Source: Candidatus Izemoplasmatales bacterium (lineage in GTDB: Bacteria > Bacillota_I > Bacilli_A > Izemoplasmatales > Hujiaoplasmataceae). From it: a DNA stretch of 14,184 bases. Under the pieces are notes generated by a model, which saw only the letters and a program-made list of their open reading frames with translations, did no database searches and was not told where the DNA came from. Of this stretch, positions 2,447-12,544 are shown in pieces. The stretch spans positions 1-14,184 of the forward strand of contig JBFXGX010000037.1 in assembly GCA_050177605.1 (NCBI GenBank), written 5' to 3'. Each line of letters starts with the position of its first letter. Position 1 is the first letter of the stretch. The translations under genes and the position numbers were made by a program.

Positions 2447-2712
2447 AACTAAAAAAAGGATATGTCGTGAGAGAAATCGCAAATGAAATCATTGTGGTTC
2501 CTACAGGAGAAGAAGCTATTCATTTTAATGGGATTATGACACTCAATAAAACGGGAAAAACTTTGTTTGAAGCCCTTCTTAGCGATCAAACAATTGAATC
2601 TTTATTAGAAATCATCTTGAATAAATATGATATTGATAAAGCAAAAGCTTTACAAGATATTGAAAGTTTTATTACTGTCTTAAAGAAAAAGGAACTATTA
2701 AGGGATGAATAA
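2443..2712 (+). CDS. PqqD-family protein / stand-alone RiPP recognition element (RRE)
   Basis: 89 aa with VVREIANEIIVVP...LNKTGKTLFEAL...ILNKYDIDKAKALQDIESFITVLKKKELL pattern. RBS AAGGAG at 2429-2434 and ATGA overlap with the kinase stop. Confidence 0.92.
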   Translation: MKLKKGYVVREIANEIIVVPTGEEAIHFNGIMTLNKTGKTLFEALLSDQTIESLLEIILNKYDIDKAKALQDIESFITVLKKKELLRDE

Positions 2713-3160
2713 AGAAGTTTCCATCAAAGAGTTATCTCCATTAATCAAATCAAAAATAGATGAAGGCGGAGAGGTATATCTTCAAGTAAAAGGAGGATCA
2801 ATGTATCCTTTCTTTTTAGATGGAAAAACAATCGTTTGTCTTTCAAAGATCAAGGGTCGTTTCAAAAAGAATCAAGTTGTTTTATTTGAAAAAAACGGTG
2901 TCTACGGATTACACCGAATTATCAATGTTCATGATGATTATCTTACCACGAGAGGTGACGCATTAATTCAAAAAGAAAATGTCTTAAAAAGAGATGTGAT
3001 TGGTATCGTGACTTCTTTTAAGACAAAGAAAAAAGAAGTCACGACGAACAACTTCTTTTATCTATGTTTGGTCACTTTATGGCGCCTCACGTTCGCTTTA
3101 CGTCGTGCAAAACTTTTTTTCTTAAGAAAGGTGGTTAAATATGGACAACCTCACTCTTAA
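2705..3160 (+). CDS. S24/S26-family peptidase (Ser-His type), putative leader peptidase
   Basis: VKGGSMYPF (catalytic Ser), LHRII (His) and TRGDA motifs. No N-terminal transmembrane segment; hydrophobic/basic C-terminal tail. Overlaps both neighbours. Confidence 0.85.
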   Translation: MNKEVSIKELSPLIKSKIDEGGEVYLQVKGGSMYPFFLDGKTIVCLSKIKGRFKKNQVVLFEKNGVYGLHRIINVHDDYLTTRGDALIQKENVLKRDVIGIVTSFKTKKKEVTTNNFFYLCLVTLWRLTFALRRAKLFFLRKVVKYGQPHS

Positions 3161-4319
3161 TTTATTGAGTCTTGTTAATTCAAGTCTGAAGCAAGAACCT
3201 TCAGAGATTGTTTTAACTAAGGAAATGTACAAAATCGCAAAAGAAAATGGCTTATCTGGAACCCTTTTTCCTGCATTGAAAAAAGAGATTCAAGAAAGTG
3301 ATGTTTACTCGCTGGTTCAAAAGGACTACTATGAATTTATCTCGAAAGATACAGTGCAAATGCAGGCGATTGAAGATTTAACTTCTTTATTTGAAGAAAA
3401 CCATATTGAACACATCTTCTTAAAAGGTTCAGTGCTCAAAAAAGTCTATCCAGCATCTTACATGCGCTCTATGGGCGATATCGATTTCTTAGTAACAAAC
3501 GAAAAAATGAACCTTGTTCATCAAGTGCTTGAAGAAAGCGGATATATAAACTGGTCTAATTCGAAAGCACATGATTGTTTCCATAAAAATAGACAAGTGT
3601 TTTTGGAAGCTCATCCGACCCTCAATTCGGATTTTGATGATGCCTATAAAAATCTTTTTAAAGATGTATGGTCCACTTGTACAAGTGAAGGATATGTTTA
3701 CAAGATGAACCATGAAACAGAGATTACTTACCTTTTATTTCATATGGTGAAACATTTATCATCTTCAGGAATTGGACTACGAAATATTCTTGATTTATCA
3801 CTCTACCTTGAAAAATATGACAGTGAAATCAGTGTTGATTATTTATATAGCCTCCTCGAGAAAGCAAAACTTGAACGATTTGCACAAAATATTTTTTCGC
3901 TTTGTATTCTTTACTTCAAACCAAACCTTCTTCAAGACTATTTAAAAAACTATCAAATGGATCAAGCATTGATCGAAGAAGCAACCACGTTTATTCTCAC
4001 TTCAGGAGTACATGGAAAAGGAGAAAATAACAATGCGCATCTTTCCGGAAGTGCCAAACAGTCACTCAAGAAAAACAATGTTGTTATTGGGCGAATTGCT
4101 TATTTAGTTAAACTTGTGTTTCCACCCTTTGACACAATGCGAGGAATGTATCCTGTTCTTCATAAGCATCCTTATCTCTATCCTTTTACCTTTCTCGCCA
4201 GATGGTATAAGATTTTTGTGAAAAAGAGAAAAACAAGTTTTAATAAAATCAAAAAATTAAAAATTACTCACAATGAAATTGAACAAAGAAGATCACTTTA
4301 TGAGCGATTTGGTTTATAA
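3141..4319 (+). CDS. Nucleotidyltransferase family protein (NTP_transf_5-like)
   Basis: FLKGSVLKKVYP...RSMGDIDFLV, LEAH and HMVKHLSSSGIGLRNILDL motifs. RBS AAGGTGG upstream; overlaps the peptidase gene. Confidence 0.88.
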   Translation: MDNLTLNLLSLVNSSLKQEPSEIVLTKEMYKIAKENGLSGTLFPALKKEIQESDVYSLVQKDYYEFISKDTVQMQAIEDLTSLFEENHIEHIFLKGSVLKKVYPASYMRSMGDIDFLVTNEKMNLVHQVLEESGYINWSNSKAHDCFHKNRQVFLEAHPTLNSDFDDAYKNLFKDVWSTCTSEGYVYKMNHETEITYLLFHMVKHLSSSGIGLRNILDLSLYLEKYDSEISVDYLYSLLEKAKLERFAQNIFSLCILYFKPNLLQDYLKNYQMDQALIEEATTFILTSGVHGKGENNNAHLSGSAKQSLKKNNVVIGRIAYLVKLVFPPFDTMRGMYPVLHKHPYLYPFTFLARWYKIFVKKRKTSFNKIKKLKITHNEIEQRRSLYERFGL

Positions 4320-4394
4320 TTTTATCAATTTCAGTGATTATTCTTACATTTTTGTTAAATTCATGTAAATATTTAAAAAATATCGATATTTATG

Positions 4395-4422
4395 TTGTAA
4401 TATGTGATGAATTTGTTACAAT
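4395..4422 (+). promoter_or_regulatory. Putative sigma-A promoter overlapped by inverted repeat TTGTAA-N15-TTACAA
   Basis: TTGTAA 4395-4400, 16-bp spacer, extended -10 TGtTACAAT 4414-4422. Confidence 0.5.
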
Positions 4423-4428
4423 AATATT

Positions 4429-4559
4429 AGTAATTAATAAACATATGTCAAATAAATGGAATTAAGTCAATCGTTTTATTACTTCATGGGGGAGACAAGA
4501 AGTCAGTAATAAACCTTACTTTCTTTTTGTGCATCCTTTCTTGGATGCACATTTTTTTT
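4429..4559 (+). ncRNA. Candidate ~130-nt small RNA or structured leader
   Basis: Lies between a putative promoter and a strong terminator. Contains stem TTTATTACT (4475-4483)/AGTAATAAA (4505-4513) enclosing GGGGGAGAC. No known RNA family recognised. Confidence 0.3.
4528..4559 (+). terminator. Rho-independent terminator
   Basis: Perfect 9-bp stem TGTGCATCC/GGATGCACA, 6-nt loop, then T8. Confidence 0.9.
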
Positions 4560-4643
4560 ATGAGATACGGTAAATGATATTGAATAGTGAACGCTATGAT
4601 AATATATGTTTTAAAAAAATAAGTTCTGAGGGAGAATGTATTT

Positions 4644-4781
4644 ATGACTAAACAAGAATTAAATAAGAAAGAAACTTATGAAACACCTACAATTGAAGTC
4701 GTTGAATTTTCACTTGAAGAGAGTATTGCATTAAGTGGAGATTTTGGTTCAAGCGTAGTTTGTTCAGAAGAGTTGTTTTAG
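4644..4781 (+). CDS. Putative RiPP precursor peptide, 45 aa (MTKQELNKKETYETPTIEVVEFSLEESIALSGDFGSSVVCSEELF)
   Basis: Translated by hand. RBS GAGGGAG at 4628-4634, ATG 4644, TAG 4779-4781. YxxPxI leader motif of the type bound by RREs. Nearest ORF with a clear RBS downstream of the RRE/rSAM/peptidase operon. Confidence 0.85.
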   Translation: MTKQELNKKETYETPTIEVVEFSLEESIALSGDFGSSVVCSEELF

Positions 4782-4790
4782 GGGGACAGT

Positions 4791-7076
4791 ATGATGAAAA
4801 AACTATTTGGTTTTATCAGTCTTATCTTATTGTTTGGCATCGCGACAGCCTTTCATTATGTTGAAGCAGCCTCACCAGTGGGAACACCAGTCGACTTATC
4901 TATTACTTCATATTTTGATGAATTTAATAAAGACGTTGTTCCACTAACAAATGTTGCCTACGGATCTAAAATTGCATTTGACAGTAGTGTTACTGCAGAT
5001 GATTCAAGTTACACATTTTTATTTTGGCAAGTTAATGGTACTGTAAACTGGAATTTAGCAAAAGATTATCAGTTCACTGTAACGAATAATCTAGATTTAG
5101 TTGCTATGTTCAAGCCAGCTGATAAATTCGCAGTAGTCTTTATGGACTCAAACGGTGAATTAATTGATGTTAAATATGTTAATTCTGGTGTAGCCGCAGT
5201 AGAACCTGATACTACTAACTATACAAAAGTTGGATTTGTCTATGATTCAACAAAATGGAGTCAAGACTTTTCAAATGTTACTTCTGACATCGTAACCTAT
5301 CTTCAATATGTTCCAGTTGAAACGCCTAATACATTTACATTATCAGTTGAAAATGGATCAGACATAACAGTAGGTGGAACTGGTACATATGATTTTAATA
5401 AGGTTGTAACAGTAGAAGCAGATGCAAATGATTCTTACCAAGTGTTTAAATATTGGAGAGTTGATAGTAGAGTTGTCTCATACAGTTCTACTTATTCATT
5501 CACTATGTTACAAAATACAACTGTAACTGCAGTATATGATTCTTCCGCATTTGTGGATGCTCCAATTGTAACGATCACTCCAGCATTAAGTTTGAGAGGC
5601 GGATATGATTCATTCTTGGGTCAATACTATCTTCCTGCTGGATATACTTATGTTGAACATGGATTAATTAATAATGTTTCAGTTTCAAATCCTACTCTTG
5701 ATAGTGATGGAACTGTTCAACATGCTGGAACGAAGATTAATGCCTCTACGAATGAATTCCTTATCAGTTTAGATAACACTTCCAGTTTAGGCAATGTTAG
5801 AGGTTATTTAGTATACAAAGATGGTTCTGATGTTTTACATACAATTTATTCTGAAGTAGAAACTCCAAAATTATTTATAAGTGAATATGGTGAAAATGGT
5901 ACAAATAAATGGATTGAATTATACAATCCAACAAATGAGACCATTGATTTATCACAATATTCTGTTGATACTTCCAATGCTTCATCAATACCACTCTCTG
6001 GTTCTTTAAATAGTGGAGATACTTATTCGATATGTAATTCTTCGCCATCCTCAGAAGTCAGTTCATATTGTGATCTAACTACATCAGGAATCAATTTCAA
6101 TGGTGATGATGCTGTAAGTCTTTATTATGGATCTGTGATTATTGATACAATTGGTGCATACTCAGGTATGGTTACAAATGAATTAGCAGATATGACATTA
6201 ATACGAAAACTATCAACAGTATCTGGAAACGCCAATTTCAATATAAATGATTGGATAGAAAAACCGATTTATTATTACGATAATATCGATGTTTGGGGAT
6301 TCCCTTCTGTTGAGTCAGTATCAATTTCTGGAGAAATCAGTGTTGCTGCTGGAAGTTCAATTCAATTAACGGCGACAGTTGAGCCACATGGCTCCGACAC
6401 ATCTGTAACATGGTCTTCAAGTAACGAATCCGTCGCAACAGTAAATAGTGCTGGGCTAGTTTCCGGGGTCTCAGAAGGGACTATTATAATTACTGCTACA
6501 TCAGTCGAAAATGAAAACATTTTTAATACGTATGAAATCACTGTTTCTTCTTCGAGTTCAATCACATCTACGATAATTATTTATGAAATCTATGGTTCTG
6601 GAGGTAATACGGGTGCAGTATATAAATCTGATTATGTAATTTTATATAATACAACTAGCTCCAGTATTGATTTAACGGGCTATTCTATTCAATATGCAAG
6701 TTCGACTGGAACTACCTTCCAGGTTCAAGCTTTATCCGGATCAATAGCAGCTAATGGATATTTTGTTATTCGTCTAAAAACCGGAACTGTAGGCAGCGAT
6801 CTTCCTTCATACAATGTTAGTGGAACAATAGATATGTCGGGGACAAAAGGAAAGGTTGCATTAGTTAATTCTACTACAGCACTTAGTGGATTAACAGCGT
6901 CTTCCTCATCATCTGTCATTGATTTTGTTGGATATGGTTCTGCAAATGATTATGAAACTAGTGCTGCTCCTGCACCAGGAACTACTACCTCTGTACAGCG
7001 TACTTCTTTTGTTGATACGGATAATAATTCAGCTGACTTCGCAGCTGTTACTGCAGATTTATCTTATTTACCTTAA
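4791..7076 (+). CDS. Secreted modular protein: N-terminal beta-rich repeat module, lamin-tail domain (LTD), Ig-like Big_2 domain, second LTD
   Basis: Signal peptide MKKLFGFISLILLFGIATAFHYVEA. LFISEYGE...WIELYNPTNETIDLSQY (LTD); IQLTATVEP...VTWSSSNESVATVNSAGLVSGVSEGT (Big_2); IIIYEIYGSGGN...DFVGYG...DTDNNSADF (LTD). No catalytic domain recognised. Confidence 0.85.
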   Translation: MMKKLFGFISLILLFGIATAFHYVEAASPVGTPVDLSITSYFDEFNKDVVPLTNVAYGSKIAFDSSVTADDSSYTFLFWQVNGTVNWNLAKDYQFTVTNNLDLVAMFKPADKFAVVFMDSNGELIDVKYVNSGVAAVEPDTTNYTKVGFVYDSTKWSQDFSNVTSDIVTYLQYVPVETPNTFTLSVENGSDITVGGTGTYDFNKVVTVEADANDSYQVFKYWRVDSRVVSYSSTYSFTMLQNTTVTAVYDSSAFVDAPIVTITPALSLRGGYDSFLGQYYLPAGYTYVEHGLINNVSVSNPTLDSDGTVQHAGTKINASTNEFLISLDNTSSLGNVRGYLVYKDGSDVLHTIYSEVETPKLFISEYGENGTNKWIELYNPTNETIDLSQYSVDTSNASSIPLSGSLNSGDTYSICNSSPSSEVSSYCDLTTSGINFNGDDAVSLYYGSVIIDTIGAYSGMVTNELADMTLIRKLSTVSGNANFNINDWIEKPIYYYDNIDVWGFPSVESVSISGEISVAAGSSIQLTATVEPHGSDTSVTWSSSNESVATVNSAGLVSGVSEGTIIITATSVENENIFNTYEITVSSSSSITSTIIIYEIYGSGGNTGAVYKSDYVILYNTTSSSIDLTGYSIQYASSTGTTFQVQALSGSIAANGYFVIRLKTGTVGSDLPSYNVSGTIDMSGTKGKVALVNSTTALSGLTASSSSSVIDFVGYGSANDYETSAAPAPGTTTSVQRTSFVDTDNNSADFAAVTADLSYLP

Positions 7077-7153: not shown

Positions 7154-7183
7154 AGAACTATGCCCTTGTGGAGGTACTCATAT

Positions 7184-10100
7184 ATGAAGAAAATCAAATT
7201 ACTCGTATTTACTCTTATTGCTCTTTTTATGCTTAGCAATATCAAAGTAAATGCAGAAACAAATCCTCAAGATAGTTTAGTAAATATTACTGTTAAAACT
7301 TATTTTGATTCAACAAATATCATTACCAATCCTCTTGATCCTATTGCCTATGGCTCTCGGGTTTCTTTCGCAAGTGAATTATCTAGTTTAGAAGGATATT
7401 CATTTGTTTTTTGGATGGTTAATGATATTATTTATCCTGATTTTCAGTTAACTGATAATTTTACAGCGAATGGAAATTCTACAATCACGGCTGTCTTTAA
7501 ACCAAATGATAAAGTCGCTGCGATTTTTCTAGATAGTAATGGGAAATTACTTGAGGTTCAATATGTTACTCCTGGAGATAGTGCTATTGAAATTAGTGAA
7601 TTAAAGTTGCCTTCTAAACCAGGTTATATGATATCTTCAACAAAGTGGAATCATAGTTTATCAAATTTAACAGTAGATACAATCTTTATCTTACAATATG
7701 AGAAAGTAGATAACTCGTCCTACACTGTTTCTGTAACAAATGGAACTGGTGGAGGAAGTTATGAGTTTAATACACAAGCAACTGTCGTTGCTAGTGATGC
7801 AGCTGCAGGAGAATATTTTAATTACTGGAAGAGCGGAGATCGAATTGTTTCTTTATCTCCTAGTTATACTTTTACTGTTTTACAAGACATAGCAGTAGAA
7901 GCAGTATATTCGACTTCAAGTTATCAAGATCAACCATTTGTTTCACTTAGTCCTAAACTAGGTATTCGAGTAGGATATTTATCTTATCTTGGTCAGTTTT
8001 ATCTACCTGAAGGATATACATTAATAGAACACGGAATGGTTGTTTCAACCTCTTCAGGAATTATCAATTTAGGTTCAAGCAGTATTACAAAATATCAAAG
8101 CAATACATTTGTTGCTACAACAAATGAATACTTAATGAGTTTTTCAAATACTAGTATTCAAAGTGTGAGAGCTTATATCATTGTAGAAGATGTAAATGGA
8201 AATTATATGACCATCTACAATGAAGTATTAACTTCTGCATCAACTCCATCTATTGCAGATGATTTGTTCTTCTCATTCTATATGGAAGGATCTAGCTATA
8301 ACAAAGTAGTATCAATTTATAATGGTACTGGAAGTAGTGTTAATTTATCAGAATATTCTGTTCAGTTGTACTCTAATGGAGCAGCCAGTGCATCGCAATC
8401 AATGACATTAAATGGAACATTAGCTAATGGTGATGTTTACGTTATTTCACATTCGTCGGCTATACCAGAAATTCTTGCAATAGCTGATGCGACATCATCT
8501 GCAGTTATTAATTTTAGTGGAGATGATGCGGTAACACTAACACATAATAGTACTATTATTGATACAATTGGACAAGTCGGTGTTGATCCTGGTTCTGCAT
8601 GGGGAACTGGCGATATTACAACTCTGGATCATTCTCTTGTTAGACTTTCGTCTACTACTTCGGGAGACACAGTATACAATGATGCCTATAGTCCAGCAGA
8701 TTATTGGGTAGGCTATGCAAAAGATACTTACTTAGGCTATATTGATACCTTCACAATGGATGGTTCAGGTTCTTCAAAATCAGTTACTGGTTTTGATGCC
8801 TTTATCAATACAATGACTTATAATGCATTATCTACATTAAGTCTTTCAAACTCTTATCTAAAAGTTTATTATGATGATGGTTCATCTTCCATAGAAACCA
8901 TCACTTCAGATATGGTTTCAAACTTTTCAACTTCCGTATCAGGTGACTACACCTTAACAGTTACTTATGGAAGTTTCACTGATACGCTCGATTATCATGT
9001 ACAAAAGATTAATCCAAGTTATACAATACCTACATTTAGTGATACAGAATTAACAAGTGGATTAAGTTTAAATAACATAACGCTTCCTAGTAATTTTTCA
9101 TGGGAAAACCCAAGTGCTTCCTTATCACTTGGAACGCATACCTTTACTGTGACTTATACGCCATCCAATACAGATGCTTATAACACGATTACAGGTATTG
9201 AAGTTTCAATCAACTTTGTTGAAGTTGTGACGCCAATTATCATTTATGAAGTCTATGGTGGTGGTGGAAATGTTAGTGCAACCTATAATCAAGACTATGT
9301 TATTTTATATAACAATACATCATCGAGTATTGATTTAAGTACTTATTCGCTTCAATATGCTTCGACTAGTACTTATACTGTCTTTAATTTATCCGGGACA
9401 ATTATGTCTCATAACTACTTTGTTATTGGATTATTAAAAGGAAGTGTTGGGGAAGACCTAGATGTCGCTCCAAATGTTAGTTTTGGAACGAGTATTGTTG
9501 TCACAGCAGGAAGAATTGCTTTAGTCGATGATCAAAATCAAATTACCGATAAAACAGACGCAAACGTTGTTGATTTTGTTGGATATGGAAGTGCCAGTGA
9601 ATACGAAACTAGTCCAACAGCGACGACATCCGCTTCACTTAGTGCGAAACGTATTTCTTTCTCCGATACCAATGATAATAGTGCTGATTTTACTGTTGGA
9701 ACGCCTAATTTAAGTTATGTTGCTTCAAGTCTTACAGTGACCGGATTCTCAGTCCATAATTTAAAAGCATATTATGAAGTTAGTGAAGCACTTAGTGTTA
9801 CGAATGCTTACTTAATTGTGTCATATAGTAATGGTTCTACATCGCAAGTCGATGTAACAAGTGATATGATTTCTTCCTTTAGTTCATCTACGTTAGGTGA
9901 TTATTCAATGAATGTAACTTATTCTGGAATTACAGAAAGTTACGCCTACCATGTTATTGATTATTCTTCTTTAGGAGAAGTCGAGATTTATTATATCGAT
10001 ATCGGAATTGATGGTGGACCTGCAGGAGAAGCAGCGTTAATCAAAATTGGAGGAATTGATATTTTAATCGATTCTGGTGATGATGATTCGTCAGCCCATA

Positions 10101-11614
10101 CGTCACTTCTTAATTTCTTAAGTACACATGTTACGGATGGTGTTATCGAATATATTATCGCAACCCATCCGCATGCAGATCACATTGGTGGATTCGTGGA
10201 TGTTATGGATAATTATGTTGTCCAAAACGTGATTGAATACTCAACTTCTACCGATTATGTGAGTGCTTTGCGTGCTGAATACGAGGATCGTATTGTGACG
10301 GAAGGTAGTACAGTCTATGATGTTTACACGATGGTCACAAATTCAGAAAATATTATTAACATCATTTCAGGCGTTTCTTTAACTTTCTATAACACTGGAT
10401 ATTTAACAAGTGCAGACCCTAATAATTCAAGTATTGTTTTTGTACTCAATGCATTTGACACCTTAGCTTTATTTAATGGAGACGCAGAAGGCGATCAAGA
10501 AGCGGTTTACGCTCCTTTAGTTGGCGATTTAGATATCTTAAAACTAGGACATCATGGTAGTGCTGCAGGAACAACATCCTTTTTATTAACTGAAACAACA
10601 CCAAATGCGATTGTGGTAAACGATGGTAATTATTTAGGAAATAGTTATGGTCATCCAACCTATACTGCTTTATCACATATTTATAATTATTCTGATAATG
10701 TTCCAGTGTATAGTGTTACAGGTGGCAATGGTGCTTCCTCTGATATTATGCTCGATAGAAACGGTACGCTAACAGTAACGATTTCAAGTGGTGGCTATGT
10801 AGTCACTTCAGAGTATTATGGATACAATCCGATGGAGTTATCTAATACAGCATATTGGAGTACGATAAATACAAGCAATATTGATGGGTATTATTACGCT
10901 GCCGCAACAGGAGAAACAACAGCTTCTGTTTTAAAAGCTTACCTGCATAATATCATTAAAGGTCATCATTCTGTTGGCTATAGTCAAGTAGATGAAAATT
11001 TAGGAATCACAGATGAAGATCCAAATAATGCGAATAATGTGATTTTGTTCTATACTGGAAGAAGTCAAGCTAAATCAACTTTTGGAAGTTTAGTTGATCA
11101 ATGGAATAGAGAACATATTTGGGCTAACTCTCATGGAATTGACGATCAAGAACCAGCCTATTCAGATTTGCATCATTTACGTCCTACCGATGTATCGGTA
11201 AATAGTATTAGAGGAAATCTAGATTTTAGTACCGTCGAGCACATTAGCGCAAATCTTGTTTCGGATACTTACGGGGATTCAATTATAACTAGAAACTATG
11301 AAGATGGTGTTTACTTTGAACCTCGAGATGAAATTAAAGGTGATGTTGCTAGAATGTTACTCTATATGACTGTACGATATGAAGGGGATGTTTCTGGAGA
11401 ACCTGATTTAGAGTTAGTCAATGGCGTTACCACAACTACTTCAAATAATCTTGGAGATTTAGCTACCCTTTTACAGTGGTGTATTGATGATCCTGTGGAT
11501 GATACTGAAAGACTTAGAAATGAAGCAATTTTCGGTATTCAAAATAACCGAAATCCATTCATTGATCACCCTGAATTAATTTATATCTTATATAGTAGTG
11601 AATTAGGAGTATAA
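7184..11614 (+). CDS. Large secreted multidomain nuclease: N-module, 2x LTD, Ig-like (Big_3-type) domains, ComEC-like MBL-fold hydrolase, C-terminal Endonuclease I domain
   Basis: Start placed at ATG 7184 (RBS GGAGGT; signal peptide MKKIKLLVFTLIALFMLSNIKVNA). MBL motifs ILIDSG, THPHADHIGG, GDAE, GHHGS, YGHP. Endonuclease I motifs WNREHIW, DLHHLRP, FEPRDEIKGDVARMLLYM, QNNRNPFIDHP. Confidence 0.9.
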   Translation: MKKIKLLVFTLIALFMLSNIKVNAETNPQDSLVNITVKTYFDSTNIITNPLDPIAYGSRVSFASELSSLEGYSFVFWMVNDIIYPDFQLTDNFTANGNSTITAVFKPNDKVAAIFLDSNGKLLEVQYVTPGDSAIEISELKLPSKPGYMISSTKWNHSLSNLTVDTIFILQYEKVDNSSYTVSVTNGTGGGSYEFNTQATVVASDAAAGEYFNYWKSGDRIVSLSPSYTFTVLQDIAVEAVYSTSSYQDQPFVSLSPKLGIRVGYLSYLGQFYLPEGYTLIEHGMVVSTSSGIINLGSSSITKYQSNTFVATTNEYLMSFSNTSIQSVRAYIIVEDVNGNYMTIYNEVLTSASTPSIADDLFFSFYMEGSSYNKVVSIYNGTGSSVNLSEYSVQLYSNGAASASQSMTLNGTLANGDVYVISHSSAIPEILAIADATSSAVINFSGDDAVTLTHNSTIIDTIGQVGVDPGSAWGTGDITTLDHSLVRLSSTTSGDTVYNDAYSPADYWVGYAKDTYLGYIDTFTMDGSGSSKSVTGFDAFINTMTYNALSTLSLSNSYLKVYYDDGSSSIETITSDMVSNFSTSVSGDYTLTVTYGSFTDTLDYHVQKINPSYTIPTFSDTELTSGLSLNNITLPSNFSWENPSASLSLGTHTFTVTYTPSNTDAYNTITGIEVSINFVEVVTPIIIYEVYGGGGNVSATYNQDYVILYNNTSSSIDLSTYSLQYASTSTYTVFNLSGTIMSHNYFVIGLLKGSVGEDLDVAPNVSFGTSIVVTAGRIALVDDQNQITDKTDANVVDFVGYGSASEYETSPTATTSASLSAKRISFSDTNDNSADFTVGTPNLSYVASSLTVTGFSVHNLKAYYEVSEALSVTNAYLIVSYSNGSTSQVDVTSDMISSFSSSTLGDYSMNVTYSGITESYAYHVIDYSSLGEVEIYYIDIGIDGGPAGEAALIKIGGIDILIDSGDDDSSAHTSLLNFLSTHVTDGVIEYIIATHPHADHIGGFVDVMDNYVVQNVIEYSTSTDYVSALRAEYEDRIVTEGSTVYDVYTMVTNSENIINIISGVSLTFYNTGYLTSADPNNSSIVFVLNAFDTLALFNGDAEGDQEAVYAPLVGDLDILKLGHHGSAAGTTSFLLTETTPNAIVVNDGNYLGNSYGHPTYTALSHIYNYSDNVPVYSVTGGNGASSDIMLDRNGTLTVTISSGGYVVTSEYYGYNPMELSNTAYWSTINTSNIDGYYYAAATGETTASVLKAYLHNIIKGHHSVGYSQVDENLGITDEDPNNANNVILFYTGRSQAKSTFGSLVDQWNREHIWANSHGIDDQEPAYSDLHHLRPTDVSVNSIRGNLDFSTVEHISANLVSDTYGDSIITRNYEDGVYFEPRDEIKGDVARMLLYMTVRYEGDVSGEPDLELVNGVTTTTSNNLGDLATLLQWCIDDPVDDTERLRNEAIFGIQNNRNPFIDHPELIYILYSSELGV

Positions 11615-11615
11615 A

Positions 11616-12509
11616 ATGAGAAAAATTTCGATTTTATTACTTGTCCTCTTCATAGGCACGGTAATGATTGGTTGTAATGAAATAACATCCTCTACAATCT
11701 CTACAACGACCACCACAACGATAACTTCGACTTCAACCACAACGACAGAACCGAATGAAATTTCTTTTACTGGATTTCAGTATGTAGAAGGCATTATTTC
11801 TTGGGACATTATCCCTGATGTGAAATATGATGTCTATGTAAACAATTCGCTTGTTTTAGAAAACGCAACTTCTTATGATACAACATTGCTTGCTAGTGAA
11901 ATGATTTACAAAATACAAGTTCATGCCTCCCTCGGAGAGCTCGTTTCAGATTCTGGGATTATGTTGATTAACCGTATGCAAACTGCACCTGAAGCGGAAC
12001 TGTTAACCCTAGACTTATCAGTTAATCGTGATGAGGCCGTTTATGCAAGTGAAGTAGAGGCTTCTTTAGTTCTAAACGCTGACTTTGTGGAGGTTCCTTA
12101 TACCTATAGTGAAGGAGAGTATCTACTTTCTGCGAGTTATCTAGCAAGTCTTGGATATGGCGACCATGTTTTCTATTTTGTTTTTGAAGACAGTGTTCAT
12201 GCTTTGTTACTAACGATTATAGACACGAGAACACCTAGTTTGATTGGAACCAATCAAATTGCAGTGGATGCTGGAAGTGATGTTGTCGTAGAGTTTAGTT
12301 TATATAATGGATCGTTTGTCTCTTTAAGTGGCAACGATATCACAACGGAGGACTATAGTATCGTTTCAGGTATTCTTACGATCGATGGAAGTTATATCCA
12401 AAATAAGTTTGTGAATGAACCTGGAAGAACAACACTCATTCTCAGTTATACTTTACAAGCAGCGGATAGTATCATCATTGGATATTTATTCATTACTCTA
12501 AATGATTAA
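11616..12509 (+). CDS. Lipoprotein with Thr-rich linker and possible X2-like Ig/carbohydrate-binding modules
   Basis: Lipobox MIGC, linker TSSTISTTTTTTITSTSTTTT, X2-like segments (YLLSASYLASLGYGDH; DYSIVSGILTIDGSYI). RBS AGGAG lies inside the end of the nuclease gene; 1-bp gap. Confidence 0.75.
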   Translation: MRKISILLLVLFIGTVMIGCNEITSSTISTTTTTTITSTSTTTTEPNEISFTGFQYVEGIISWDIIPDVKYDVYVNNSLVLENATSYDTTLLASEMIYKIQVHASLGELVSDSGIMLINRMQTAPEAELLTLDLSVNRDEAVYASEVEASLVLNADFVEVPYTYSEGEYLLSASYLASLGYGDHVFYFVFEDSVHALLLTIIDTRTPSLIGTNQIAVDAGSDVVVEFSLYNGSFVSLSGNDITTEDYSIVSGILTIDGSYIQNKFVNEPGRTTLILSYTLQAADSIIIGYLFITLND

Positions 12510-12514
12510 AAATG

Positions 12515-12544
12515 AAACCTTCAAATTTGAAGGTTTTTCTTTTT
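12515..12544 (+). terminator. Probable Rho-independent terminator
   Basis: Perfect 22-bp palindrome AAACCTTCAAATTTGAAGGTTT (12515-12536) followed by a T-rich run. Confidence 0.8.

Follow-up and report, generated by a model that had tools for sequence, protein, structure and literature searches.

A 45-codon open reading frame (ORF) in a 14,184-nt stretch of DNA from a Candidatus Izemoplasmatales bacterium (contig JBFXGX010000037.1; the whole stretch analysed is called the window below) was identified by sequence comparison as a genuine, conserved small gene. The ORF is located at positions 4644 to 4781 of the forward strand, with an ATG at 4644 and a TAG stop codon at 4779-4781, and its product is MTKQELNKKETYETPTIEVVEFSLEESIALSGDFGSSVVCSEELF. 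Its conservation and gene context make it probable that the ORF is translated and provides the precursor of the adjacent PqqD-dependent modification operon; the peptide would then belong to an undescribed Bacillota family of peptides made on ribosomes and modified after translation (RiPPs), related to lasso peptides without lasso formation.

An earlier note on this DNA had described the ORF with its ribosome-binding site GAGGGAG, the ATG at 4644 and a product of 45 aa, which was confirmed by reading the sequence. It had also proposed a precursor-type peptide with a YxxPxI leader beside a PqqD-type protein, in agreement with the co-occurrence of peptide and operon across genomes described below. 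The elements of the gene are as follows:

4628 to 4634, + strand: Shine-Dalgarno sequence GAGGGAG, 9 nt ahead of the ATG at 4644, read directly from the sequence.
4644 to 4781, + strand: precursor peptide gene as proposed here, 45 codons, TAG stop included in the coordinates (homologues, alignment, profile and substitution pattern).
4644 to 4736, + strand: proposed leader, residues 1-31, ending in I28-A29-L30-S31 (conserved stretch; putative cleavage site).
4677 to 4694, + strand: YxxPxI recognition motif, Y12-E-T-P15-T-I17 (family conservation).
4737 to 4778, + strand: proposed core GDFGSSVVCSEELF, residues 32-45, the variable, acidic and aromatic part.
4761 to 4763, + strand: codon of Cys40, likely target of a radical S-adenosylmethionine (SAM) enzyme (covariation with the radical SAM gene).

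Since short ORFs are frequent in this region (11 ORFs of at least 20 aa overlap positions 4250-4800), the case for a real gene rests on conservation and not on length. No Pfam or NCBIfam family was found for the peptide, even at E<=10 and with five family members tried, and the ESM Atlas clusters obtained for it carried only the label "hypothetical protein". A word-indexed search of 5.8 billion proteins yielded eight small proteins, 41-47 aa long and with 67-96% identity, one of which its source annotates as a hypothetical protein from a Candidatus Izemoplasmatales metagenome-assembled genome. In a translated search of 61 genomes of the same order, matches were obtained in 24 at E<=1 and in 21 at E<=1e-5, a genome often holding two or three copies. 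A profile search added a peptide in genome G059, bringing the peptide-bearing genomes from 21, found by the protein query, to 22 of 61. No second copy was found in the genome of the window itself, in which the only other matches (E 0.05 and 0.35) lie inside long ORFs.

An alignment of 34 members (A1) showed invariant residues at Y12, P15, F22, I28, A29 and S31, while E13, E18, L24, G35 and C40 were conserved in at least 90% of the members. The profile built from this alignment was searched against 1.84 billion representative proteins and matched 263 of them at E<=1e-3. The best 150 of these 263 representatives were all 29-100 aa long; therefore no fused forms occur among these 150. The same 150 sequences kept Y12 in 149 cases, P15 in 150 and S31 in 148, so that the conservation of the YxxP leader in related loci, on which the earlier note had made its proposal depend, was indeed found. 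Position 29 was Ala in 125 of them and Thr in 22, and a Gly directly followed S31 in 91.

The mean ratio of non-synonymous to synonymous differences (pN/pS), calculated for 406 pairs from 29 DNA copies, was 0.39 overall. By segment it amounted to 0.63 for residues 1-11, 0.28 for residues 12-31, the lowest value, and 0.42 for residues 32-45; this substitution pattern shows purifying selection on the peptide. A GGAG-type Shine-Dalgarno-like sequence was present upstream from the start codon in all homologous copies (29/29). The cores vary between lineages whereas the leader is conserved, and this combination in a small gene is what characterizes RiPP precursors. The homologues, the invariant residues and the purifying selection together identify the ORF as a real gene.

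The family extends beyond the order. A profile search matched 50 of 399 scored genomes of the class, and the synteny recurred in 20 loci fetched. A degenerate DNA pattern for the leader matched at least 121 stretches, and 80 loci came with flanking sequence; some of the matches are due to chance and lie inside long ORFs. In 33 of the 80 flanked loci, from named Clostridia and Bacilli records, an HprK-like, PqqD, S24 or NTP_transf_5 gene was located within 3 kb of the leader-motif small ORF. Record labels among the matches listed include Lachnospiraceae, Oscillospiraceae, Ruminococcus, Roseburia, Faecalimonas and Clostridium, as well as Acholeplasma, Mariniplasma, Erysipelotrichaceae, Izemoplasmatales and a few others. 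Two loci with labels outside the Bacillota, L132 (Succinivibrio sp.) and L137 (Rikenellaceae), had leader-motif small ORFs beside PqqD together with HprK-like or NTP_transf_5 genes; both peptides of L132 contain two cysteines each. Binning or transfer might account for these two labels.

The named isolates in these records are Faecalimonas umbilicata DSM 103426, Roseburia sp. AM59-24XD, Clostridium sp. AM49-4BH and Acholeplasma granularum ATCC 19168, and with the exception of the last they make the chemistry testable. In A. granularum ATCC 19168 (L151:2986-3039) the leader-motif ORF, found beside PqqD and S24 genes, has only 17 codons and ends just past ...LEVIEFK; it may be a decayed precursor gene. 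With 263 representative clusters that range from Clostridia of the gut to wall-less bacteria of marine and subsurface habitats, the peptides would constitute a large RiPP family that has gone unannotated.

Five genes, which overlap one another, precede the peptide gene on the same strand:

616 to 1596, + strand: radical SAM enzyme with a CxxxCxxC motif (C-NAS-C-YM-C) and a Cys-rich C-terminal region (Pfam PF04055, 1.2e-17).
1568 to 2446, + strand: P-loop protein with the fold of HPr kinase and phosphoenolpyruvate carboxykinase (PEPCK), with an alternative ATG at 1589 (fold model; no Pfam hit).
2419 to 2712, + strand: PqqD-family recognition protein, with an ATG at 2443 (Pfam PF05402, 9.9e-12).
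2705 to 3160, + strand: S24/S26 peptidase of the archaeal/SipW type, without an N-terminal membrane segment (Ser and His boxes).
3141 to 4319, + strand: NTP_transf_5 nucleotidyltransferase (Pfam PF14907, 2.4e-46).

The nearest solved chain to the radical SAM enzyme was SkfB (6efn, 1.1e-8), followed by BlsE (1.3e-8), with SuiB further away. The similarity to SkfB is confined to the radical SAM core (residues 18-176), and no match to Pfam SPASM was obtained for the enzyme at E<=0.01, its C-terminal region being Cys-rich. The HprK-like protein gave weak NCBIfam matches to ScmC and HprK_rel. Its AlphaFold2 model had a mean predicted local distance difference test score (pLDDT) of 93.2, and Foldseek aligned it to PEPCK (1.4e-6) and to HPr kinase/phosphorylase (6.9e-6), with a probability of 1.00 in both cases. 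The Walker A residues S149, G152, K153 and T155 were invariant in an alignment of its homologues (A4). Assignment of the peptidase to the archaeal/SipW type is based on its two boxes, GxSMxP for the catalytic Ser (31 of 31 homologues) and HR[IVL] for the His (28 of 31). Since its score against TIGR02228 was 29.7 bits for a cut-off of 51.85, it is considered a divergent relative of the SipW type.

Across the 61 genomes of the order, the HprK-like gene was present in 26 and NTP_transf_5 in 26, and 33 genomes had none of the peptide, HprK-like and NTP_transf_5 genes. All 22 peptide-bearing genomes carried the HprK-like or the NTP_transf_5 gene, and 21 of them carried both. Cluster genes with no detected peptide were found in six genomes: three of them (G004, G012 and G024) are 70-83% complete and have their cluster-gene matches at contig ends, and in the remaining three (G042, G056 and G057) these matches are divergent or fragmentary. 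The five-gene operon was located directly upstream of a peptide in about half of 20 loci fetched.

Three loci showed irregularities in the PqqD gene. In the genus of the window, the homologue at L024:1930-2187 (- strand) has an in-frame stop inside the tblastn match, which may be due to a pseudogene, a sequencing error or a start-site effect. The homologues at L035:9440-9679 and L037:1139-1411 have stops near the start of the match.

The presence of a cysteine in the core followed the presence of the radical SAM gene. The status of 28 cluster-adjacent motif hits could be decided: a core Cys accompanied the radical SAM gene in 14, both were absent in 14, and none was discordant. One of the 14 hits with neither (L066:10219-10392) is a spurious motif match, leaving 13 real ones. 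Outside the order most members have no radical SAM gene, and their cores have no cysteine. The pattern is not purely phylogenetic, since L060, from another family, has both the gene and the cysteine, and two genomes inside the order, G059 (L077) and G053 (cluster in L073, peptide in L041), have neither.

The same pattern was observed for whole genomes. G053, G059, G373, G328, G304 and G253, which are 90-99% complete, contained only Cys-less peptides and no homologue of the enzyme at E<=1e-5. G011, G023, G016, G049, G296, G405 and G079 contained a radical SAM homologue and a Cys-bearing peptide; in five of these seven the homologue is the single match of the genome, and in G405 there is a second, weaker one. 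The family as a whole can do without the radical SAM gene. The earlier note had regarded the cysteine as the target of this enzyme, and the covariation of the two supports that view: Cys40 is likely the residue modified. SkfB, the nearest solved relative of the enzyme, forms thioethers, and a thioether may be made at this position as well.

The leader suggests how the peptide might be recognized. In lasso systems, YxxPxL is the documented site of the leader bound by the B1 protein, a RiPP recognition element (RRE) (PMC10368454), and the peptide follows that pattern at Y12, P15 and I17. Prediction of a complex between the PqqD protein (alignment A3) and the peptide (A1) gave a score of 0.41, compared with 0.00 for the best of three controls. 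The mark for this score was reached in a benchmark by 116 of 157 solved complexes and by 2 of 215 mismatched pairs; values of 0.60 or under comprised only 18 of the 157 solved complexes, together with both mismatched pairs that passed. Contact agreement between runs was at least 91% and the pLDDT of the partner at least 53. As structures of RRE-leader complexes are available, the pass may stem from resemblance to them, and the model lends weak support to docking of the leader on PqqD.

Peptidases of the S24/S26 group have small residues at positions -3 and -1 of their cleavage sites, and LexA-type enzymes cut between Ala and Gly. The residues around S31, namely Ala or Thr at -3, Ser at -1 and Gly at +1, fit this specificity, and a cut after S31, releasing the 14-residue core (32-45) that the earlier note had proposed, is plausible.

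The earlier note had taken the three serines of the core as targets of the kinase and the nucleotidyltransferase. This proposal did not survive the comparison: the core serines vary, and 33 of 148 family cores contain no Ser or Thr at all. Asp or Glu is present in 146 of these cores, an aromatic residue (Phe, Trp or Tyr) in 133, and 140 of them are acidic overall. Among the hydroxyl residues of the family, Y12 and S31 alone are near-universal. S31 is therefore a likelier candidate than the core serines, either as the phosphorylation site or as a determinant of cleavage. By analogy with lasso precursors, another register is possible, in which residue 29 would be position +1 of the core and S31 would correspond to Ser3, the residue of BsfA phosphorylated by BsfK (PMC10368454). 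HPr-kinase homologues of lasso clusters phosphorylate a serine on the linear precursor, and in pseudomycoidin the nucleotidyltransferase adds hexoses onto that phosphate (PMC8498205).

We propose the following pathway. The leader, with Y12xxP15xI17 and the strand-like IEVVEF segment, would dock on PqqD, which would present the peptide to the enzymes. The radical SAM enzyme would modify Cys40, the simplest product being a thioether formed within the molecule to a residue close by. The SipW-like S24/S26 peptidase would cut after A29-x-S31, freeing a short acidic and aromatic core. A phosphate-linked group would be added by the HPr-kinase-like protein and NTP_transf_5, most likely on S31 and not on a core serine.

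The strong conservation of residues 12-31 could have another cause, namely that the conserved N-terminal 31-mer is itself the product, cut after S31, phosphorylated on its C-terminal Ser as by lasso kinases and decorated by NTP_transf_5, with the tail acting as a follower or as a second product. That residues 12-31 are the most constrained part and that S31 is the only near-universal serine, in a family in which 33 of 148 cores have no Ser or Thr, would agree with such a product. However, leaders are normally the conserved part of a precursor because the enzymes read them, and modification of the C-terminal part is indicated by the covariation of core Cys and radical SAM gene. A C-terminal serine is also not required by this type of kinase, as BsfK targets the internal Ser3 (PMC10368454). 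We consider a 31-residue product unlikely.

The peptide gene is tightly coupled to the gene downstream, which the earlier note had missed. Two large secreted proteins are encoded after it in the window:

4791 to 7076, + strand: secreted protein of 761 aa, with a signal peptide, an N-terminal module (N-dom, 4791-5855) and then lamin-tail domain (LTD) and Big_2 domains.
7160 to 11614, + strand: another N-dom protein, 1484 aa long, containing LTD, metallo-beta-lactamase and Endonuclease I domains and not preceded by a peptide gene.

The gene of the 761-aa protein starts 9 nt past the peptide stop, and its ribosome-binding site overlaps the peptide stop codon. The N-terminal 330-350 residues, approximately, of the two proteins are homologous to each other and define N-dom. 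Throughout the order, every peptide copy was directly upstream of a gene whose N-terminus (about 350 residues) matches N-dom. When the earliest possible start codon is taken, 44 of 45 pairs have a long ORF with a signal peptide that can start between -20 and +18 nt from the peptide stop; in the other pair it starts at +253. Motif hits with no adjoining signal-peptide ORF comprised spurious hits, copies at contig ends, the divergent types L072 and L080, L055, L067 and the orphan L057; L055 and L067 do count as followed by N-dom in a separate check for this module. In L057:878-1012 (G079), a Cys-bearing peptide is followed by housekeeping genes (rlmN-like and others) and not by an N-dom gene.

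At E<=1e-10, N-dom was found in 22 of 61 genomes, and these are exactly the 22 peptide-bearing genomes. N-dom proteins outnumber the peptides; the window, for example, has two modules and one peptide. The AlphaFold2 model of N-dom (pLDDT 87.6; predicted template modelling score 0.79) consists entirely of beta strands. Foldseek returned only generic hits to tandem beta domains (cell-surface protein YwfG, poly-ubiquitin and Ig-like chains), so the fold points to no specific function.

In Clostridial loci the order of the genes is reversed. A giant ORF, often of at least 960 aa and extending past the edge of the locus, stops 3-90 nt short of the peptide gene, and the enzyme genes come after the latter. 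The domains of these giant ORFs are GLUG, BspA-type leucine-rich repeats, M26_N, NlpC/P60 or lectin-like. Fifteen of the 25 Clostridial upstream ORFs examined share a C-terminal module of about 330 residues (alignment A5; L098, L104, L105, L108, L111, L116, L124, L134, L153, L162, L163, L166, L168, L171 and L093). No credible Pfam family was found for the A5 module, the single hit (ACD, 6e-4, in 1 of 14 members) being probably spurious, and no relation between A5 and N-dom was detected by hhalign (probability 0.3%). Three of the 25 ORFs (L172:2-2971, L119:3063-3881 and L129:2461-3195) end in a module homologous to N-dom (blastp 4e-17 to 1e-12), with the peptide gene directly after it, so that the adjacency is kept despite the inverted gene order.

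In both arrangements, the precursor gene abuts the end of the large exported-protein gene that codes for the module: in Izemoplasmatales and Acholeplasmatales it is upstream of modules that are N-terminal, and in Clostridia it is downstream of modules that are C-terminal. In the lineage of the window the peptide would be made together with the secreted N-dom protein, here extracellular nuclease-type enzymes, and its function would therefore be tied to those proteins. Because the precursor gene always abuts the module-coding end, the mature peptide might be a dedicated partner in trans (ligand, anchor or assembly element) of a module on giant secreted or surface proteins; we regard this role as possible but doubtful. 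If true, it would constitute a novel means by which Bacillota, wall-less ones and others, equip or retain the enzymes they export (extracellular nucleases, for example).

Izemoplasmatales loci with several genes for extracellular nucleases, among them a large one with a lamin-tail domain, have already been described, and the nuclease-type proteins are thought to set the niche of these bacteria as degraders of environmental DNA (PMC8289736). The term "radical SAM" is absent from the main text of that paper and of a second one on Izemoplasma. Were the peptide to partner, anchor or regulate the nucleases, it would bear on how wall-less cells retain secreted enzymes.

The coupling could also mean that the peptide is an unmodified small protein whose sole role is with the secreted protein encoded downstream, for instance as its co-translated chaperone or as a partner of N-dom, and that the operon is a mere neighbour. 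The spacing of the signal-peptide ORF in 44 of 45 pairs, the presence of N-dom in exactly the peptide-bearing genomes (22/22) and the several peptide copies with no cluster within 10 kb would all be expected in that case. The same 22 genomes, however, all carry cluster genes, the leader carries the RRE motif and the core Cys tracks the radical SAM gene. Moreover, the Clostridial members keep the enzymes and lack N-dom save in three loci. Such a stand-alone role seems quite improbable.

Several observations weigh against a precursor processed by the adjacent operon. Many peptide copies are far from a cluster, and L023, L028, L029, L032, L034, L040 and L041 have none within 10 kb. No HprK-like gene was detected in G009 (95% complete), which nevertheless retains a Cys-bearing peptide and N-dom proteins; the cluster of this genome (L083:8933-11690) consists of the radical SAM gene, a gap of 129 nt, the S24 peptidase and NTP_transf_5, with no PqqD or HprK-like gene between. 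Two genomes, G412 (90% complete) and G007 (87%), have a radical SAM gene and only a Cys-less peptide was found in them. Conversely, G060 has a Cys-bearing peptide and no radical SAM gene was found, the contig with its cluster ending inside the HprK-like gene. The prediction of the PqqD-peptide complex was only weak and reported no contacts, no exporter is present within the window, and the related genomes compared are non-independent observations.

In the window, the operon is also parted from the peptide gene by a hairpin:

4528 to 4551, + strand: terminator-like hairpin with a stem of 9 bp and a T-run after it, located past the enzyme operon and ahead of the peptide gene.

The 324-nt spacer in which it lies (4320-4643) occurs once in the genome. 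The AT-rich segment of about 200 nt between NTP_transf_5 and the hairpin (4320-4527) contains no conserved ORF or Rfam match. In loci L024 and L025, of the same genus, the distance from NTP_transf_5 to the peptide gene is only about 84-92 nt.

The closest known systems to the proposed precursor and its operon are the phosphorylated and phosphoglycosylated lasso clusters. Paeninodin (PadeA/K/B1), pseudomycoidin (PsmK/PsmN) and Bsf (BsfA/K/N/B1) share with it the YxxPx[LI] leader, a discrete PqqD-type protein, an HPr-kinase homologue and a nucleotidyltransferase (PMC8498205, PMC10368454). Unlike these, the present system has no lasso cyclase, B2 protease or ABC exporter. It has instead an S24/S26 peptidase and, in the Cys-bearing lineages, a radical SAM enzyme, and its precursor gene is joined to the gene of a large secreted protein. 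A search of the full text of the literature, supplements apart, gave no description of the peptide family or of this enzyme set without a lasso cyclase. In this family, elements of phosphorylated lasso peptides (leader, recognition protein, kinase and nucleotidyltransferase) would be reused with no lasso being made. It would offer a natural experiment on the rewiring of peptide pathways, with a clean radical SAM/cysteine add-on.

These shared components are what a lasso peptide precursor would display: the YxxPxI leader, a PqqD protein whose best NCBIfam hits are lasso chaperones, and a kinase and nucleotidyltransferase as in paeninodin-, pseudomycoidin- and Bsf-type clusters. Other observations speak against a lasso. 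No match to PF13471, the transglutaminase-type B2 protease, was found in the genome of the window (89% complete) or in the window itself, and Asn_synthase (PF00733), the family to which lasso cyclases are similar, matched only on contigs C9 and C15, none on the window's contig. The ring-forming Asp or Glu is absent from core positions 7-9, which are V, V and C if the core starts at G32 and G, S and S if it starts at A29. The PqqD protein scored below the lasso chaperone cut-offs, with 32.3 against 70 bits for NF033530 and 29.9 against 80 bits for NF033536. The lasso link drawn in the earlier note holds for the leader motif at Y12, P15 and I17 and not for membership, there being no B2 protease and no nearby cyclase. 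From the absence of the protease, of a nearby cyclase and of an acidic residue at positions 7-9, and from the sub-cut-off PqqD scores, the sequence evidence is that the peptide system is not a lasso system, and we give a lasso precursor almost no credence.

Sactipeptide and ranthipeptide systems, such as SkfB/SkfA, resemble the present one in having a radical SAM enzyme, a recognition element and a Cys-containing peptide. In contrast to them, the peptide here has one cysteine only, the likeness to SkfB is limited to the core and the radical SAM gene is dispensable. The SynChlorMet cassette (ScmC/ScmE/ScmF) has a similar mix of HPr-kinase-like, PqqD-like and radical SAM proteins, and ScmC was the best NCBIfam hit of the kinase-like protein. 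Membership was rejected on the scores: 24.1 against 125 bits for ScmC, 48.1 against 400 for ScmE and 40.2 against 400 for ScmF. The SynChlorMet cassette is itself uncharacterized.

A precedent for a modified peptide partnering a secreted protein is QhpC, the small subunit of quinohemoprotein amine dehydrogenase, in which a radical SAM enzyme forms Cys-to-Asp/Glu thioethers in a subunit of an exported enzyme. The parallel is an analogy only; QhpC, unlike the present peptide, has several cysteines and its own exporter.

Control of the downstream gene by a regulatory upstream ORF (an attenuator or arrest peptide) would account for the directly upstream position, the tight coupling and the nearby hairpin, but is considered highly improbable given the purifying selection along the entire peptide, its spread to 263 representatives, its travelling with dedicated enzymes and the location of the Clostridial peptide downstream of the large gene.

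An Rfam scan of the window showed nothing near the peptide gene. A match to Phe_leader at 12470-12543, between two lipoprotein-like genes, stayed below threshold (34.1 bits, gathering score 55; E 0.016) and is probably due to chance.

The ORF at 11616-12509 of the window codes for a lipoprotein-like protein of 297 aa with a C-terminal domain (residues ~170-295) that gave a weak match to CBM_X2. This domain recurs by cluster or nuclease genes in L026, L027, L030, L035, L039, L053, L055, L056 and others, and the Endonuclease I domain protein likewise recurs by cluster or nuclease genes in related loci.

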